DNA from: an uncultured Gemmatimonadales bacterium
GTDB lineage: Bacteria; Gemmatimonadota; Gemmatimonadetes; Gemmatimonadales; GWC2-71-9
DNA: 64,000 bases
NCBI GenBank assembly: GCA_963779755.1
Contig: CAVZZO010000001.1
Location: 1,945,650-2,009,649 of the forward strand
Direction: 5' to 3'
This document shows positions 23,489 to 29,580 of the stretch, one piece after another. Under the pieces are notes generated by a model. It ran no database searches and had not been told where the DNA came from. It worked only from the letters and a program-made list of their open reading frames with translations. Position numbers and translations under genes: made by a program. Each line of letters starts with the position of its first letter. The stretch's first letter is position 1.

Positions 23489-25165
23489 TCAAGCCGTGCC
23501 GTCGGGGCAGGCCGGCGCCGCCGCCCAGGCCTGCGCTGCGGCAAGAAAGGCGGCCAACGCTTCCCCGTCGCCGGCCTTCACGGCCTCGGTCAGCGCCCGC
23601 AGCACGTCCTGCAACGCCTGCAGGGCTGTCGCATCGGCCACCCGGTTGCTGCGCACCGCGCCGGCCCACAGCAGGGGGGAGCTCAGCGCCAGCCGCGTGG
23701 TGTCGCGGCCGCCCGGCCCCAGGGACGCCCGCGGCGTCCCCGCCTGCCGCAGGGCGAGCGCCAGGGCGGAAGCCAGCAACTGGGGCAGATGGCTGGTCCA
23801 GGCCATCTCCGCGTCGTGCTGCTCCGCCTTCATGCGCCGGCAGCGCGCCCCGAGGGCCAGCCACAGGCGCTCGGCCGAGGCAATACTGTGGGCGGCGCTC
23901 TGCGGGCCGGGGCAGATATAGACCGTCGCATTCTGAAAGAGTCCCAGCCGCGAGGCCTCCCAGCCCGAGCGGTGATCGCCGGCCAACGGGTGTGTCCCGA
24001 CGAAATTGCCCAGGCCCAGCCGGGCGGCGGTCGCGACGATCTCCTGCTTGGTGCCCCCGACATCGACCACGGTATCGTAAATGCCGGTCCGGGAGGCATT
24101 GGCCTGGAGCCAGGCGGGGGCCGCCTCCGGCGGGATGGCGAGGATGAGCATCTCGGCGCGGGCGTCCGGCTCGTCGCAGGTGATGATGCCCTCGGCCCGG
24201 GCCTGTTGCAGGGTCCCGGCATCGGCGTCTTCGCCCTGCACCCGGCAGCCGCGAGCCGCCAGCTCGCGGGCGATGGAACCTCCGATGAGGCCCAGCCCGA
24301 CGATCCGCGCCGTCTCGAAAGGCCGCTCGGGCCGGCTGCCCCCGCTTCGGCCGAACCGGCCCAGCAGCCGGAGCGAGGTCGCCACGCGGTGCGCCCGCTC
24401 GACGGCCCGGTCCCAGGAGGCCTCATCGACGTTGGTATCCAGCTCGAGAATGAAGCGGTAGGTCCAACGCTCCCGGGCCGGGCGCGCCTCCAGTCTGGCG
24501 AGATTGATCCCGGCATCGGCGAAGGGCAGCAGCAACGCCGCGAGTGCACCGGGGTGGTTGGCCGTCTCGGCCAGGAGTACGGCGCGGCCGGTGCTCGCGG
24601 AGCGAAGGGGAGCGGAGCCCGGTGGCCCGACCAGGTAGAAGCGGGTTTCGTTGTCGGAGCGGTCCTGGACCTCTTCCGCCAGCAGCGTGAGTCCATAGTG
24701 CCGGGCGGCTTTGCGGCCGGCCAGCGCCGCCAGCGTCCGGTCGCCCGATTCCGCGACGAGGCGCGCGGCGCCGGCCGTATCGGCTACGGCCTGTGCCAGG
24801 ATGGCGGGGTGGCGCGCAAGAAACCGGGTACACTGACTCAGGGCGACGGGATGCGAAAGGATACGGCGGAGGCCCGGCCATTCCGTACCGGGGAGCGCCG
24901 CGAGGCAAAGGGGGATGCGATGCGTGAACTCATCCAGAATGACCAGATCCCCGCCGGCAAGCAGATCGTAGACGTCGGCGATGCCGCCGGCGGTCGAGTT
25001 CTCCACCGGCAGGAGCCCGTACTCGGCTCCGCCGGAGAGCACCGTTCGCGCCACGGCGCCAAAGTCGGGGCAGGGCAGGGCCGTGGCCGAAGGCGCGGCG
25101 CCGAGAATCGCCTCCTCGCTGAACGCACCCGGTTCGCCCTGGTAGGCGATGCGTACCGCGCTCAC
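23489..25165 (-). CDS. Fused prephenate dehydratase-ACT-prephenate dehydrogenase (PheA PDT + TyrA)
   Basis: PDT motifs YQGEPGAFS, PVENS, SHPVALSQC, NETRF; ACT motif PGAL...INLARLEARP; TyrA motifs IVGLGLIGGS, DVGGTK, HPLAG, HD...TSHLPQ, RDTTRLA. All in one continuous frame; GTGA overlap with the upstream gene. Confidence 0.88.
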   Translation of the reverse strand: MSAVRIAYQGEPGAFSEEAILGAAPSATALPCPDFGAVARTVLSGGAEYGLLPVENSTAGGIADVYDLLAGGDLVILDEFTHRIPLCLAALPGTEWPGLRRILSHPVALSQCTRFLARHPAILAQAVADTAGAARLVAESGDRTLAALAGRKAARHYGLTLLAEEVQDRSDNETRFYLVGPPGSAPLRSASTGRAVLLAETANHPGALAALLLPFADAGINLARLEARPARERWTYRFILELDTNVDEASWDRAVERAHRVATSLRLLGRFGRSGGSRPERPFETARIVGLGLIGGSIARELAARGCRVQGEDADAGTLQQARAEGIITCDEPDARAEMLILAIPPEAAPAWLQANASRTGIYDTVVDVGGTKQEIVATAARLGLGNFVGTHPLAGDHRSGWEASRLGLFQNATVYICPGPQSAAHSIASAERLWLALGARCRRMKAEQHDAEMAWTSHLPQLLASALALALRQAGTPRASLGPGGRDTTRLALSSPLLWAGAVRSNRVADATALQALQDVLRALTEAVKAGDGEALAAFLAAAQAWAAAPACPDGTA

Positions 25166-25461
25166 GCCTCTTCCACCTGGACCCCGCGGCACAGGCCGAT
25201 CACCTGCCAGAGGAGCTGGCGCACCTCCTCCACCGGGAGGCCGGATTCCCGGGCAAAGACCGCCGCCCGCCGGACCACCGCCGCCTCCTGGGCCGGATCC
25301 ACCAGGGGGAGCCGGGCGTTGCGCTTGATCTCCCCCGCCTCACGGGCCAGCGACATGCGTTCGGCGAGGAGCGTGAGCATCTGCCGGTCCAGTTCTTCGA
25401 TCTCCACCCGCAGCTGCTCCAGGAGCTGCTGCGGCGCGGCACCGCTGCACCTGGTCGTCAT
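25162..25461 (-). CDS. Chorismate mutase (AroQ type II, stand-alone)
   Basis: LEQLRVEIEELDRQMLTLLAER...GEIK...P..DPAQE; ATGA overlap with aroF. Confidence 0.88.
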   Translation of the reverse strand: MTTRCSGAAPQQLLEQLRVEIEELDRQMLTLLAERMSLAREAGEIKRNARLPLVDPAQEAAVVRRAAVFARESGLPVEEVRQLLWQVIGLCRGVQVEEA

Positions 25462-26504
25462 GCGGCCTCCCCGGCCTCGCAGGCCGGCAGGGGATCCAGG
25501 GTGCGGCCGGCCGCCTCGGCGATGAGCCGGACCCGGCGCATGCACGCGGCGAACTCGACCAGCGACAGCGACTGGTCGCCGTCGCTCCGCGCCTGGCTGG
25601 GATCGGGATGGACTTCGATGAGGAGCCCGTCCGCCCCGGCGGCCACCGCGGCGCAGGCGAGCGGCGGGACCAACGCAGCCCGTCCGGCGGCGTGGCTGGG
25701 ATCGACCAGCACCGGGAGGTGAGTTTCGCGCTTCAGGACGGGAACGGCGGCAATATCCAGCGTGTTGCGGGTGGACGTCTCGAAGGTGCGGATGCCCCGT
25801 TCGCAGAGGACCACGTCCGGGTTGCCCCGGGCCAGCACGTGCTCGGCGGCGTGCAGCAGCTCGGTGATCGTGGCACCCATGCCGCGCTTCAGGAGCACCG
25901 GCCGGCGGATACGGCCGGCCTCCGCCAGGAGAGTGTAGTTCTGCATGTTGCGCGCGCCGATCTGGATCATGTCGGCCACCTCGGCGACCTGCTCCATCCG
26001 GCGCGGGTCCATCACTTCGGTGACCACCGGCAAGCCGCTGGCCCGGCGCGCCTCGGCGAGGAGGGGGAGCGCGTCCTCGCCCAGGCCGGCGAAGGAATAG
26101 GGGGAGGTGCGGGGCTTGAAGGCCCCGCCGCGCAGCAGGGTGGCCCCCGCTGCCCGCACCGCGCGCGCCGACTGGAGCAGCATGTCGGCCCCTTCCACCG
26201 AGCAGGGGCCGGCAATCACCGCCACCTCGCGGCCGCCGATGCGGGCCGGCCCCACCCGGACGACGGTGGGCTCGCCGGTGCCGAGCGCCGCCAGCGGACA
26301 GGACACCGGGAGGGGCAGGGCGGCCTCCACCAGCGGATGCGCTCGGAGCAGATCCGGATCGACCGGGCCGGTTTCGGGGATGCAGCGGAGCAGGGCGCCG
26401 TGCTCGCCGCGGGAGCATCGGGTGCGGGCGCCGCGGGATTCGATTAACTCACGCAGCTGATCGAGCTGCTGCTCGGTGGCGCCGCGACGAACCAGAATGA
26501 GCAT
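25458..26504 (-). CDS. aroF: 3-deoxy-7-phosphoheptulonate (DAHP) synthase, class I-beta with N-terminal regulatory domain
   Basis: Motifs IAGPCSVE, RGGAFKPRTSPY, QIGARNMQN, LLKRG, LCERGIRTFE, DPSH, EVHP...SDG. GGAGGT RBS before the ATG at 26504. Confidence 0.95.
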   Translation of the reverse strand: MLILVRRGATEQQLDQLRELIESRGARTRCSRGEHGALLRCIPETGPVDPDLLRAHPLVEAALPLPVSCPLAALGTGEPTVVRVGPARIGGREVAVIAGPCSVEGADMLLQSARAVRAAGATLLRGGAFKPRTSPYSFAGLGEDALPLLAEARRASGLPVVTEVMDPRRMEQVAEVADMIQIGARNMQNYTLLAEAGRIRRPVLLKRGMGATITELLHAAEHVLARGNPDVVLCERGIRTFETSTRNTLDIAAVPVLKRETHLPVLVDPSHAAGRAALVPPLACAAVAAGADGLLIEVHPDPSQARSDGDQSLSLVEFAACMRRVRLIAEAAGRTLDPLPACEAGEAA

Positions 26505-26524
26505 ACCGTACCTCCGGGGGGGAC

Positions 26525-26556
26525 AAAAAAAGCGGCCCGTGAATTTCACGGGCCGC
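26525..26556 (-). terminator. Intrinsic terminator (attenuator) upstream of aroF
   Basis: Minus strand GCGGCCCGTGAAATTCACGGGCCGC forms a perfect hairpin followed by 7 T, about 20 nt upstream of the aroF start. Confidence 0.92.
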
Positions 26557-26578
26557 CGTCTTCGGAAACGCAGGGTCG

Positions 26579-26662
26579 CTAGACTCGCAAACGCCCGGTT
26601 CCGCGGCCCGTGGTTGGGGTCGCGTAGCTGAAATAGAAAGCGAAGCGGGAGCGTGTGGTCAC
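26579..26662 (-). CDS. Phe/Tyr-rich leader peptide MTTRSRFAFYFSYATPTTGRGTGRLRV (27 aa)
   Basis: GTG...TAG with codons 7-13 = F A F Y F S Y; lies between a sigma70-like promoter and a terminator upstream of a Phe/Tyr biosynthetic operon. Confidence 0.82.
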   Translation of the reverse strand: MTTRSRFAFYFSYATPTTGRGTGRLRV

Positions 26663-26668
26663 GTGCTA

Positions 26669-26697
26669 TTGATACCATCCGGGCCGGCGGGCGTCAA
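26669..26697 (-). promoter_or_regulatory. Sigma70-type promoter of the aroF operon
   Basis: TTGACG-17 nt-TATCAA with a TGn extended -10. Predicted +1 falls on or next to the leader GTG. Confidence 0.72.
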
Positions 26698-26702
26698 GTA
26701 TT

Positions 26703-26737
26703 TTCCCCTTTCCCCCTTCCCGTTTCCCTGTTCTCTG
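26703..26737. repeat. Five degenerate heptamers (TTCCCNN)
   Basis: TTCCCCT TTCCCCC TTCCCGT TTCCCTG TTCTCTG. Confidence 0.6.
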
Positions 26738-26790
26738 CGTGCCGGTCCCTTTCGCGAACGGCGGCACCGGCGCAGATTGCACCGGTGTTC

Positions 26791-26864
<74 letters not shown>

Positions 26865-26870
26865 TTGAGG

Positions 26871-26910
26871 ACGGCAGGACGGCAAGACGGGAGGACGGCA
26901 GGACGGCAAG
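26871..26910 (+). repeat. Second ACGGCA(G/A)G octamer array (5 units)
   Basis: ACGGCAGG ACGGCAAG ACGGGAGG ACGGCAGG ACGGCAAG; same unit as at 1748. Confidence 0.9.
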
Positions 26911-26955
26911 GAATATCCTCGACCCTCTTAGTCCCCTCGACACCTCGACCCACCC

Positions 26956-29580
26956 ATGCCAGACGAGCGCACCCGCCTGAAGGATGCCCTTGCCGACCGC
27001 TATGCCCTCGATCGGGAAATCGGGAGCGGGGGCATGGCCACGGTCTACCTCGCCCAGGACCTGCGCCACGACCGTCAGGTGGCGGTCAAGGTCCTCCGGC
27101 CCGACCTGGCCGCCACGCTGGGGAGCGACCGGTTCTTCCGCGAAATCCAGGTGGCCGCGCGGCTGCAGCACCCGCACATTCTGCCGCTGCTCGATTCCGG
27201 CGAGGCGGGCGGCTTCTACTACTACGTCATGCCCTATGTGCAGGGCGAGTCGTTGCGCGAGCGGCTGGCCAGGCATGGCGAGTTGCCGGTGCACGAGACG
27301 GTGAAGCTGCTCTCCGAAGTCGTGGATGCCCTGGCCGAGGCCCATGCCAACGGCGTAGTGCACCGCGACATCAAGCCGGACAACGTGATGCTCTCGGGCC
27401 GTCACGCGCTGGTGATGGACTTCGGCGTGGCCAAGGCGGTGAGCGAGGCGACCGGGCGGCAGAAGCTGACCACGGCCGGTATCGCGCTGGGGACGCCCTC
27501 ATACATGGCGCCGGAGCAGGCGGCGGCCGATCCGCAGCTGGATCACCGGGTGGACATCTACGCGGTGGGGGTGCTGGGCTACGAGATGCTCACCGGCAGC
27601 CCGCCGTTTGGGGGAAAGAGCCCGCAGGAGATCCTGGCGGCGCAGGTGACCCAGGCGCCGGAGCCGATTTCGAAACATCGCCCAGCCGTGTCGGCGGCGC
27701 TGGAGTCGGTACTGATGAAGTGCCTGGAGAAGCGGGCGGCCGACCGGTGGCAGACGGCGGAGGAGCTGCTGGGGCAGCTGGAGGTGCTGGCCACGCCAAG
27801 CCTGGGGATGACGCCGACCCAGACCCGGCCGGTGGCGGCGGTCGCGGTCGGCGGCCGCGGGTTCCCGCTCTGGGCCGCCTGGGTGCTGGGCGGGGCGCTG
27901 GTGGCGGCGGGTGCTCTGGCATTGACGCTGCGGCAGCGAGCGCCCGCCGTGCTGGACCTGGGAAATCGCACCCCGCTGGCGGTCTCGCCGGACATCGAGC
28001 AGTGGCCCGACCTCAGCCCTGATGGAAAGCTGGTCGCCTACACCGTGGCGGACACGGCCGGAGTTCACCTCACGGTGCGGCAGGTGGGTGGCGGGGTTCC
28101 CATCGCCATTACCGAAGGCACTCAGGCCTGGGTCGGCGCCATATCGCCCGATGGCAGCCGCCTCCTGCATTCCGGCCCGAACGGTCTGTACGTCATGCCG
28201 CTCCTCGGTGGCCCCGCCCGGCCCGTAGCGGACATCAGCCCGATGGGCGCGGCGTGGTCTCCCGACGGACGGCGTGTCGTCCTTGCCTCCCGGGATACCC
28301 TGTTCGAGCAGAGCCTGGACGGCACCGGCCGGAAGCCGCTGGCGGCCGGCGTAGATCTGCATTCGCCCGCCTGGTCGCCCGACGGCAGGTGGATCGCCTA
28401 CGTCGAGGGAAATTCGAGGTTCTACGGCCAGGGCAACAACGCGCCCAGCCGGATCCTGGTACTACCCGCCGCGGGGGGCACGCCGGTCGCCGTGACGGAC
28501 TCGGCCTCGTTCAACACCAGCCCGGTCTGGATCCCCGGCCGGCGCGCCCTGCTGTTCATTTCCGACCGCGAGGGCGGCCGCGATATTTATCAGCTGGAGC
28601 TGACCTCCAGCGGGGCCGCGGCCGCTCCCCCGGTCCGCATCACGACCGGCCTCAACCCCGGCCGGATCAGCCTTTCGGCCGACGGGAAACGCCTGGCCTG
28701 GTCCACCGGAGTCCAGACGTCCAACATCTGGGAGATCCCCATCTCCGGTCGCGATTCGGTTCCGTTCTCCCGGGGCCGCCAGGTCACCACCGGCTCGCAG
28801 GATGTCGAGCAGGCAGACGTGTCGCCCGATGGCCGATGGCTGTACTACGACTCGAACCTCGGCGGCCACTCCAGTATCTGGCGCCAGCCGCTGGCGGGAG
28901 GAACCCCGGAGCGCCTCACCAGCGACTCCGCCGACGATTTCGCCCCCGCCGTCTCGCCCGACGGACGCTGGGTCGCCTTCCACTCCACGCGCAACGGCAG
29001 TAGTAACCGGGACGTGTTCGTGATCCCGGCGGCGGGAGGGCCTGCCGTGCAGGTCTCCACCAGTGCCGGAGACGACCGGGTCCCTCATTGGAGTCCGGAC
29101 GGCAGGATGCTGGCCTGGTCCGATAACGACAGGCCCGACAGCAATATCCTGGTAGCGCACCGGCAGGCCGGCGGGTCCTGGTCGGCGCCGCGGCGGCTTG
29201 CCGCGCGGGGATTTCAGGCAGGACAGTGGCGGCCCACGGGTGGGATCACGCTCGGGTCATCCGCTGGAATCTCGCTGCTGGACCCCGCGAGTGGGGCGAC
29301 GACCCTTCTGGTGGACTCGACCGGGGCCCCGGGGGGGGGTGCGTACACCGCCTGGTCCGGGGACGGCAAGACGCTGTATTTCGCCGTACGGGATTCGGCG
29401 GGCCCGGTCGTCCGCCTTCGGGCAATCACGCGGCCGGGGGGCCGGCCGAGGACGGTGGCGTACACCGATAATCCCCGGGCCCAGTTCTTTCGCTTCGGCC
29501 TGGCGGCGCATGCGGGATATCTCTACCTGCCACTGGTGGATGCAAACTGGGATGTGTGGGTGGCGGATGTGGAGCGCTAG
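26956..29580 (+). CDS. Membrane Hanks-type Ser/Thr protein kinase with extracytoplasmic PD40/TolB-like beta-propeller
   Basis: Kinase motifs GSGGMATV, VAVK, HRDIKPDN, DFG, GTPSYMAPE, DIYAVG; one TM (WAAWVLGGALVAAGALAL); many (W)SPDG repeats. Confidence 0.93.
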   Translation: MPDERTRLKDALADRYALDREIGSGGMATVYLAQDLRHDRQVAVKVLRPDLAATLGSDRFFREIQVAARLQHPHILPLLDSGEAGGFYYYVMPYVQGESLRERLARHGELPVHETVKLLSEVVDALAEAHANGVVHRDIKPDNVMLSGRHALVMDFGVAKAVSEATGRQKLTTAGIALGTPSYMAPEQAAADPQLDHRVDIYAVGVLGYEMLTGSPPFGGKSPQEILAAQVTQAPEPISKHRPAVSAALESVLMKCLEKRAADRWQTAEELLGQLEVLATPSLGMTPTQTRPVAAVAVGGRGFPLWAAWVLGGALVAAGALALTLRQRAPAVLDLGNRTPLAVSPDIEQWPDLSPDGKLVAYTVADTAGVHLTVRQVGGGVPIAITEGTQAWVGAISPDGSRLLHSGPNGLYVMPLLGGPARPVADISPMGAAWSPDGRRVVLASRDTLFEQSLDGTGRKPLAAGVDLHSPAWSPDGRWIAYVEGNSRFYGQGNNAPSRILVLPAAGGTPVAVTDSASFNTSPVWIPGRRALLFISDREGGRDIYQLELTSSGAAAAPPVRITTGLNPGRISLSADGKRLAWSTGVQTSNIWEIPISGRDSVPFSRGRQVTTGSQDVEQADVSPDGRWLYYDSNLGGHSSIWRQPLAGGTPERLTSDSADDFAPAVSPDGRWVAFHSTRNGSSNRDVFVIPAAGGPAVQVSTSAGDDRVPHWSPDGRMLAWSDNDRPDSNILVAHRQAGGSWSAPRRLAARGFQAGQWRPTGGITLGSSAGISLLDPASGATTLLVDSTGAPGGGAYTAWSGDGKTLYFAVRDSAGPVVRLRAITRPGGRPRTVAYTDNPRAQFFRFGLAAHAGYLYLPLVDANWDVWVADVER

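Follow-up and report, generated by a model that had tools for sequence, protein, structure and literature searches.

At positions 23489 to 26697 on the minus strand of the 64,000-nucleotide (nt) stretch of DNA from a Gemmatimonadales soil bacterium analysed here (the window), three genes of aromatic amino acid synthesis follow a short leader that carries a cluster of phenylalanine (Phe) and tyrosine (Tyr) codons, an intrinsic terminator and a second copy of one arm of that terminator. The genes encode a 3-deoxy-D-arabino-heptulosonate 7-phosphate (DAHP) synthase (aroF), a chorismate mutase and a fused prephenate dehydratase and prephenate dehydrogenase (pheA-tyrA), and the leader is a candidate attenuator of their transcription. 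All leader features were read on the minus strand and are given below in the order in which RNA polymerase would meet them, followed by the genes (ORF, open reading frame; aa, amino acids).

26692-26697, minus strand: −35 hexamer of the leader promoter, TTGACG, read from the sequence; same −35 type in 21 related leaders
26669-26677, minus strand: extended −10, with TG at 26677-26676, one base, and TATCAA at 26674-26669, read from the sequence; spacing to the start codon kept in relatives
26579-26662, minus strand: leader ORF of 27 codons, GTG at 26662-26660 and TAG at 26581-26579; predicted transcript 5' end at the GTG or at most 2 nt away
26624-26644, minus strand: regulatory codons 7-13, with Phe at 7, 9 and 11 and Tyr at 10 and 13 (five aromatic codons of seven)
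26617-26623, minus strand: segment 1, pairing weakly with segment 2 in minimum-energy folds; putative anti-antiterminator or pause hairpin
26603-26612, minus strand: segment 2, an exact 10-nt copy of the terminator 3' arm within the leader frame; pairs with the terminator 5' arm as the antiterminator
26565-26602, minus strand: inner hairpin inside the antiterminator, including the leader stop codon, from the folds
26546-26557, minus strand: segment 3, the terminator 5' arm, from the terminator scan
26531-26542, minus strand: segment 4, the terminator 3' arm, from the terminator scan; loop at 26543-26545
26525-26531, minus strand: run of seven T, the first of which closes the terminator stem, read from the sequence
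26511-26515, minus strand: aroF Shine-Dalgarno sequence GGAGG, read from the sequence, 6 nt before ATG 26504
25458-26504, minus strand: aroF, DAHP synthase type I-beta with an N-terminal ferredoxin-like regulatory domain, 348 aa (Pfam DAHP_synth_1, 4.6e-80)
25162-25461, minus strand: chorismate mutase type II, 99 aa, its start overlapping the aroF stop (Pfam CM_2, 9.4e-21)
23489-25192, minus strand: fused prephenate dehydratase-ACT-prephenate dehydrogenase (pheA-tyrA), up to 567 aa (Pfam PDT, 1.7e-52; ACT, 3.1e-06; PDH_N, 1.1e-21; PDH_C, 6.3e-12)

The two hexamers of the leader promoter are separated by a spacer of 17 nt, and the GTG start follows the −10 after 6 nt, with no purine-rich Shine-Dalgarno sequence and no alternative in-frame start either upstream or ahead of the first aromatic codon. 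Segment 2 begins 11 nt past the last Tyr codon. The terminator (26557-26531) has a 12-base-pair (bp) stem with nine G-C pairs and a 3-nt loop, and its T run ends 20 nt ahead of the aroF start codon. A preliminary description of this DNA, made from its letters, had proposed the promoter, a GTG without Shine-Dalgarno sequence, a 27-aa frame with three Phe and two Tyr codons, the terminator and the identical copy of its 3' arm at 26612-26603, and each of these was present where it had been placed.

The proposed aroF, chorismate mutase and pheA/tyrA operon was likewise confirmed by the Pfam matches, and by this gene content it encodes the entry enzyme of the pathway, the branch-point enzyme and the enzymes of both the Phe and the Tyr branch. 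A different frame holds an 80-aa ORF (25200-25442), which was rejected as the chorismate mutase, as it had no Pfam match and the true gene lies at 25162-25461. The branch-enzyme fusions found in this family are unusual (23489-25192 and loci L119-L129): prephenate dehydratase is fused to DAHP synthase in several relatives, in frames of about 600 aa, and to a type I chorismate mutase in one.

Recurrence and co-variation in relatives

Among named records, those nearest to the source genome are Gemmatimonadaceae and other Gemmatimonadota assemblies, and the leader was compared with the regions upstream of the DAHP synthase genes that matched best in 40 relatives. A short aromatic-rich frame was present in 21 of the 22 Gemmatimonadota loci given to a frame-finding script, with a terminator-like hairpin after the frame in all 21 leaders; the one exception, a Longimicrobiales locus (L036), had no leader or terminator upstream of its synthase, also when inspected by eye. 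The design shared by the relatives comprises a promoter-like site, a start codon a few nt further on, a short frame with a cluster of aromatic codons, and a G+C-rich hairpin followed by a T run. Conservation of the Phe and Tyr codons, which the preliminary description had named beforehand as a point on which its attenuator could fall, thus came out in its favour, and leader, terminator and antiterminator copy all recur.

A wider and less selective tally covered 59 distinct DAHP synthase places in the 40 relatives and the source genome, leaving out genome G014 and the third paralogue of the source genome (C3:503340), which follows smc and by eye has no leader. Leaders were found at 15 of the 20 places with at least 57% identity to aroF and at two of the 39 with at most 53%, both of the latter tryptophan (Trp) type, a contrast to which no P value is attached because the relatives share kinship and are not independent. 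Among the five places of at least 57% identity at which no leader was found, three are on contigs that end too soon, one gene directly follows smc and one follows trpA at the end of a trp operon. This distribution indicates that the leader tracks one orthologous group of DAHP synthases, not its paralogues.

Within the source genome, the composition of the frame is exceptional. The genome has 68.5% G+C and, in a whole-genome scan, 87 strict terminator-like sites, and among the 89 short ORFs upstream of these sites the leader frame alone has at least five aromatic residues in eight, the runner-up having three in eight. The duplex between segment 2 and the terminator 5' arm (−24.9 kcal/mol) was matched by none of 300 shuffles of the upstream region, and the 10-nt length of the copy of the 3' arm was reached in none of 300.

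The terminators of the 21 leaders form several sequence classes, and within each class the upstream segment changes along with the terminator. This co-variation was measured as duplex energies for each sequence, with shuffle and swap controls, rather than as a column-wise covariation count, because two MAFFT alignments did not bring the helices into register. For each of the 21 leaders, the terminator 5' arm pairs better with its own upstream region than with the mean of the 20 others; per leader, 0 to 6 of the 20 foreign upstream regions pair equally well, and these mostly belong to the same terminator class. Exact upstream copies of the terminator 3' arm of at least 7 nt occur in 13 of 21 leaders, compared with 66 of 420 cross-pairings, and the copy usually starts 4-17 nt past the aromatic cluster, within the frame and ahead of its stop codon.

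The predicted switch and its competitors

The features by which attenuators are recognized are found together at this locus: clustered codons for the products of the operon, an intrinsic terminator before the first gene, an antiterminator pairing that excludes it in silico, and conservation with co-variation. The analysis establishes the sequence elements, the pairings that exclude each other, the way these recur and co-vary in relatives, and which genes the operon contains; the element is very probably a ribosome-mediated (leader-peptide) transcription attenuator that controls the operon of aroF, chorismate mutase and pheA-tyrA. We infer from the sequence where transcription starts, that the frame is translated, how the switch behaves kinetically and which amino acids are sensed. 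Transcription would begin at GTG 26662 or within about 2 nt of it, and the leader frame would be translated leaderless, without a Shine-Dalgarno sequence. With an ample supply of charged Phe-tRNA and Tyr-tRNA, the ribosome would cross codons 7-13 and segment 2 (26612-26603), and by the time segment 3 is made it would still be travelling along segment 2 or have reached the stop codon, which is the least secure step of the model; the terminator arms would then pair and RNA polymerase would halt at the T run (26531-26525), ahead of aroF. When Phe-tRNA or Tyr-tRNA is scarce, the ribosome would stall on the aromatic codons and cover segment 1, leaving segment 2 free to capture the terminator 5' arm once it is made, so that no terminator would form and polymerase would proceed into aroF.

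Folds of the nascent RNA, extended to the terminator loop, pair segment 2 with the terminator 5' arm, and this pairing closes a branched structure of −41.3 kcal/mol when no ribosome is present. The antiterminator is kept at −35.3 kcal/mol with the ribosome mask placed on four of the five aromatic codons; placed on the last Tyr codon, the mask reaches the first base of segment 2 and the nascent fold has −32.0 kcal/mol. At full length, the leader adopts the terminator fold (−56.5 kcal/mol).

The leader start is likely to be leaderless, as the preliminary description had proposed; the spacing from promoter to start codon that it relied on is conserved in relatives, and the 5' end itself is deduced from that spacing. 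The start chosen in each of the 21 leaders lies 4-11 nt past a −10-like hexamer, with the −35 hexamer 16-19 nt further upstream. Combined promoter scores of at least 9 were obtained for 12 of the 21 leaders and for 0.37% of the 3,269 other start-like triplets that served as background in these loci, and scores of at least 8 for 16 of 21 and 1.9%, respectively, a contrast inflated by the fact that the starts of the related leaders were chosen partly by promoter score. Nine of the 21, the source leader included, have no alternative in-frame start upstream. Across the source genome, 1,027 starts had a promoter score of at least 9, which is about the background expectation and says nothing on the frequency of leaderless genes.

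Besides this inflation, several observations weigh against the attenuator as we describe it. A consensus promoter scan called no promoter at the leader, because the −10 hexamer TATCAA has no T at its sixth position, and the source leader starts with GTG while the other 20 start with ATG. The folding energy of the 165-nt leader is ordinary (z = −1.62), with 11 of 200 shuffles at least as stable. At full length, the terminator remains the minimum-energy fold even when a ribosome masks the aromatic codons; as the full-length RNA always favours the terminator, antitermination would have to be kinetic, with segment 2 capturing segment 3 before segment 4 does. The leader stop codon, moreover, lies 21 nt past segment 2, and a ribosome waiting there leaves segment 2 uncovered. 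In trpL of Escherichia coli, the ribosome waiting at the stop codon covers segment 2. For a ribosome at the stop codon of the source leader, the fold predicts a weak hairpin of segments 1 and 2 together with the terminator, and with the stop beyond segment 2, termination in times of plenty would therefore hang on timing or on that weak hairpin.

As to which amino acids are sensed, the codon content of the leaders appears broadly to follow the content of the operons. In one relative, four consecutive Tyr codons and no Phe codon precede aroF, chorismate mutase and tyrA only, whilst in another leader six Phe codons and one Tyr codon precede aroF and a pheA-chorismate mutase fusion, and Phe-dominated leaders precede pheA-DAHP synthase fusion genes. 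Leaders with Trp, Phe and Tyr codons stand before stand-alone synthases without the regulatory domain, and Trp leaders before a DAHP synthase with trpE, trpG and trpD in the source genome and with trpE and trpD in relative G004 (ORFs scanned). This correspondence makes it plausible that a single peptide senses both Phe and Tyr, as the preliminary description held. Two observations speak against it: the match is loose, since relative G037 has two Tyr codons and only pheA was found downstream, with no tyrA, and the Phe-Tyr-Phe leader of Corynebacterium glutamicum responds to Phe limitation with no effect of Tyr availability, according to the account in PMC11802643. Taking both sides together, dual sensing of Phe and Tyr by the source leader seems rather more probable than otherwise. 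A true attenuator that effectively senses Phe alone, with the Tyr codons adding little, is a serious possibility that we nevertheless consider doubtful; the C. glutamicum response favours it, as does the share of Phe among the regulatory codons of the source leader (three of five), but the Phe-free leader with four Tyr codons indicates that Tyr codons can regulate alone in this family, and the source operon makes both amino acids.

The remaining explanations accept less of the attenuator. A genuine terminator/antiterminator switch might be set by a protein or a small ligand, in the manner of TRAP, a T-box or a riboswitch, with the aromatic codons incidental, and the alternative pairings do exist without a ribosome. 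Amino acid leader families in Rfam include Phe, Trp, His, Leu and Thr leaders. An Rfam search of positions 25000-28000 (cmscan, E up to 10) returned six matches, of which a tRNA was the sole one above its gathering score; the single match on the leader was mmgR/suhB, at 19.9 bits against a gathering score of 41, with no riboswitch, T-box or leader family. The frame, the position of the aromatic cluster just before segment 2 and the start codon just after a promoter-like site all recur in the 21 leaders, a combination that only a translated sensor explains, and the Trp operon of the source genome has Trp codons in the same position, so that we regard a ligand-set switch as very unlikely.

It is scarcely credible that the short frame encodes a small protein with its own function, the hairpin being its ordinary terminator and aroF being transcribed from a separate promoter. 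In the closest relative, G033, the peptide has a similar C-terminal half, but this similarity coincides with the RNA pairing segments; across the 21 leaders, the mean column identity is 42% and the peptide outside the aromatic cluster is not conserved, and no promoter-like site was called in the 20 nt between the T run and the aroF start. The chance that aroF really begins at ATG 26678, which would make the leader an N-terminal extension of the enzyme, is negligible, for although that long frame is open for 406 aa (25458-26678), its ATG sits within the promoter spacer, the extension would include the 12-bp terminator and T run, GGAGG stands ahead of ATG 26504, the match to the ferredoxin-like domain profile begins at residue 1 of the 348-aa form (DAHP_snth_FXD, residues 1-64 to profile positions 1-64), homologues align from that same residue with a Met at the same place, and what relatives conserve upstream is the short aromatic frame, which ends in a stop codon.

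The mechanical ORF list does carry aroF back through the leader as this 406-aa frame, an error that the preliminary description had pointed out. The aroF start is accordingly to be annotated at 26504, not 26678, and the annotation gains the 27-codon leader gene and the 99-aa chorismate mutase gene, both of which a longest-ORF reading hides.

The leader family and related systems

A second leader-peptide attenuator appears to lie outside the window, on contig C1 of the source genome (approximately 1418735-1423100; L111:836-5184). Its start codon stands 7 nt past a promoter-like site and opens a frame of 27 codons, among which three Trp codons fall within four; a terminator follows, and the leader precedes a paralogous DAHP synthase gene (C1, approximately 1,418,933) and then trpE, trpG and trpD. 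Leaders of this Trp type also occur in relatives G004 and G028. Two of the three DAHP synthase isozymes of the genome thus appear to be under attenuators of different amino acid specificity. A genome scan for a promoter-like site, a short ORF and a terminator gave 19 hits from the 1,027 starts, which included both DAHP synthase leaders and otherwise had no convincing amino acid run; one Thr/Val-containing short ORF was among them, and a Tyr-containing hit was rejected as an attenuator, as it falls inside a long ORF on the opposite strand. One Trp-containing short ORF and one with a Leu run were also rejected, each apparently lying, by eye, at the 3' end of an upstream coding region.

Of 74 loci belonging to other phyla, 14 likewise have aromatic leader frames and terminators ahead of this synthase type; these include Clostridia, Geobacter, Syntrophaceae and a planctomycete (loci L045, L049, L052, L054, L056, L069, L074, L076, L078, L079, L091, L092 and L107 among them). 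The leader starts in Clostridia have ordinary Shine-Dalgarno sequences, and two starts in the Geobacter group directly follow a promoter-like site.

It may be, at somewhat less than even odds, that in Gemmatimonadota the entry step of aromatic amino acid synthesis is controlled by one modular family of leaderless leader peptides, not by repressors of the TyrR/TrpR type, with codons repeatedly re-tuned to the operon. If so, examples of re-tuning would be Tyr only before aroF-tyrA, Phe-rich leaders before aroF-pheA and pheA-DAHP synthase fusions, Phe and Tyr before pheA-tyrA, all three amino acids before a stand-alone synthase, and Trp only before DAHP synthase and trp genes. Ribosome loading at the 5' end of the transcript would then build in the coupling to polymerase and make a strong pause hairpin of segments 1 and 2 needless.

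Both the mechanism and its placement upstream of aroF are already known, and are met here in the little-studied phylum Gemmatimonadota. In C. glutamicum, a Phe-Tyr-Phe leader peptide upstream of aroF (aroR-aroF) was predicted by Mentz et al. 2013 (PMC4046766) and later characterized (Neshat et al. 2014, as summarised in PMC11802643), with expression altered by Phe limitation only. The two systems, compared by description, both place a short frame carrying a Phe/Tyr motif immediately before a DAHP synthase gene, and at aroR a shortage of charged tRNA is described as raising read-through; they differ in phylum (Gemmatimonadota, not Actinomycetota), in the number of regulatory codons (five compared to three) and in the chorismate mutase and fused pheA-tyrA that the source operon additionally has. 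Independent origin and common descent of the source leader and aroR appear equally likely. Neshat and colleagues are said to have found the attenuators of C. glutamicum to be leaderless.

The enterobacterial systems pheL-pheA and trpL-trpEDCBA, as they are outlined in PMC11802643 and PMC3082878, have in common with the source leader a run of end-product codons, four pairing segments, an intrinsic terminator and control by ribosome stalling. Enterobacterial leaders are reported to have a Shine-Dalgarno sequence (described for E. coli in PMC4007540), whereas the source leader starts 6 nt past its −10 hexamer, has its stop codon beyond segment 2 and matches no Rfam leader family. Leaderless leader peptides are reported for Deinococcus deserti, with 5' ends mapped by RNA sequencing (PMC4007540), and polycysteine leaderless short ORFs for mycobacteria (bioRxiv 10.1101/834739). 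As these sources present them, the D. deserti and mycobacterial cases resemble the source leader in having a regulatory short ORF with an AUG or GUG start at the 5' end of the transcript, and differ in that their transcription starts were mapped by RNA sequencing, while that of the source leader is predicted from promoter spacing alone. Putative attenuators have also been listed before operons of type I-beta DAHP synthase (aroAI-beta) and tyrA in Thermus and Thermoanaerobacter (Table 7 of PMC1173090), where, as here, a type I-beta synthase is followed by tyrA or pheA; the entries of that table are database predictions, with no leader peptide described and no Gemmatimonadota included. We found no paper on leader-peptide attenuators in Gemmatimonadota in a literature search that was thin on subscription journals.

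The locus leaves the understanding of how attenuators work unchanged, and its value lies in the corrected annotation and the series of leaders, not in a new mechanism. It provides a specific model, open to experiment, of how Gemmatimonadota may regulate the synthesis of aromatic amino acids, and the Tyr-only, Phe-only, mixed and Trp-only leaders of the relatives form a natural series in which to follow how codon choice sets the specificity of an attenuator.

Features next to the leader

No public sequencing run covers the locus, each of the 24 runs listed containing at most 0.06 of the sampled words, a small share that most likely comes from the conserved tRNA-Met gene nearby. This gene (26791-26864, plus strand) is divergent from the leader. 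Just upstream of the leader −35 hexamer lies a tandem repeat of a 7-nt unit (26702-26728, 3.9 copies), and another, of an 8-nt unit (26868-26908, 5.1 copies), comes right after the 3' end of the tRNA-Met gene; tandem repeats of 7-8 nt were also seen in intergenic DNA beside DAHP synthase genes of relatives (L003, L013 and L017) and elsewhere in the source genome. The next gene beside tRNA-Met (26956-29580, plus strand) encodes an 874-aa serine/threonine protein kinase with C-terminal PD40/WD40-like beta-propeller repeats.

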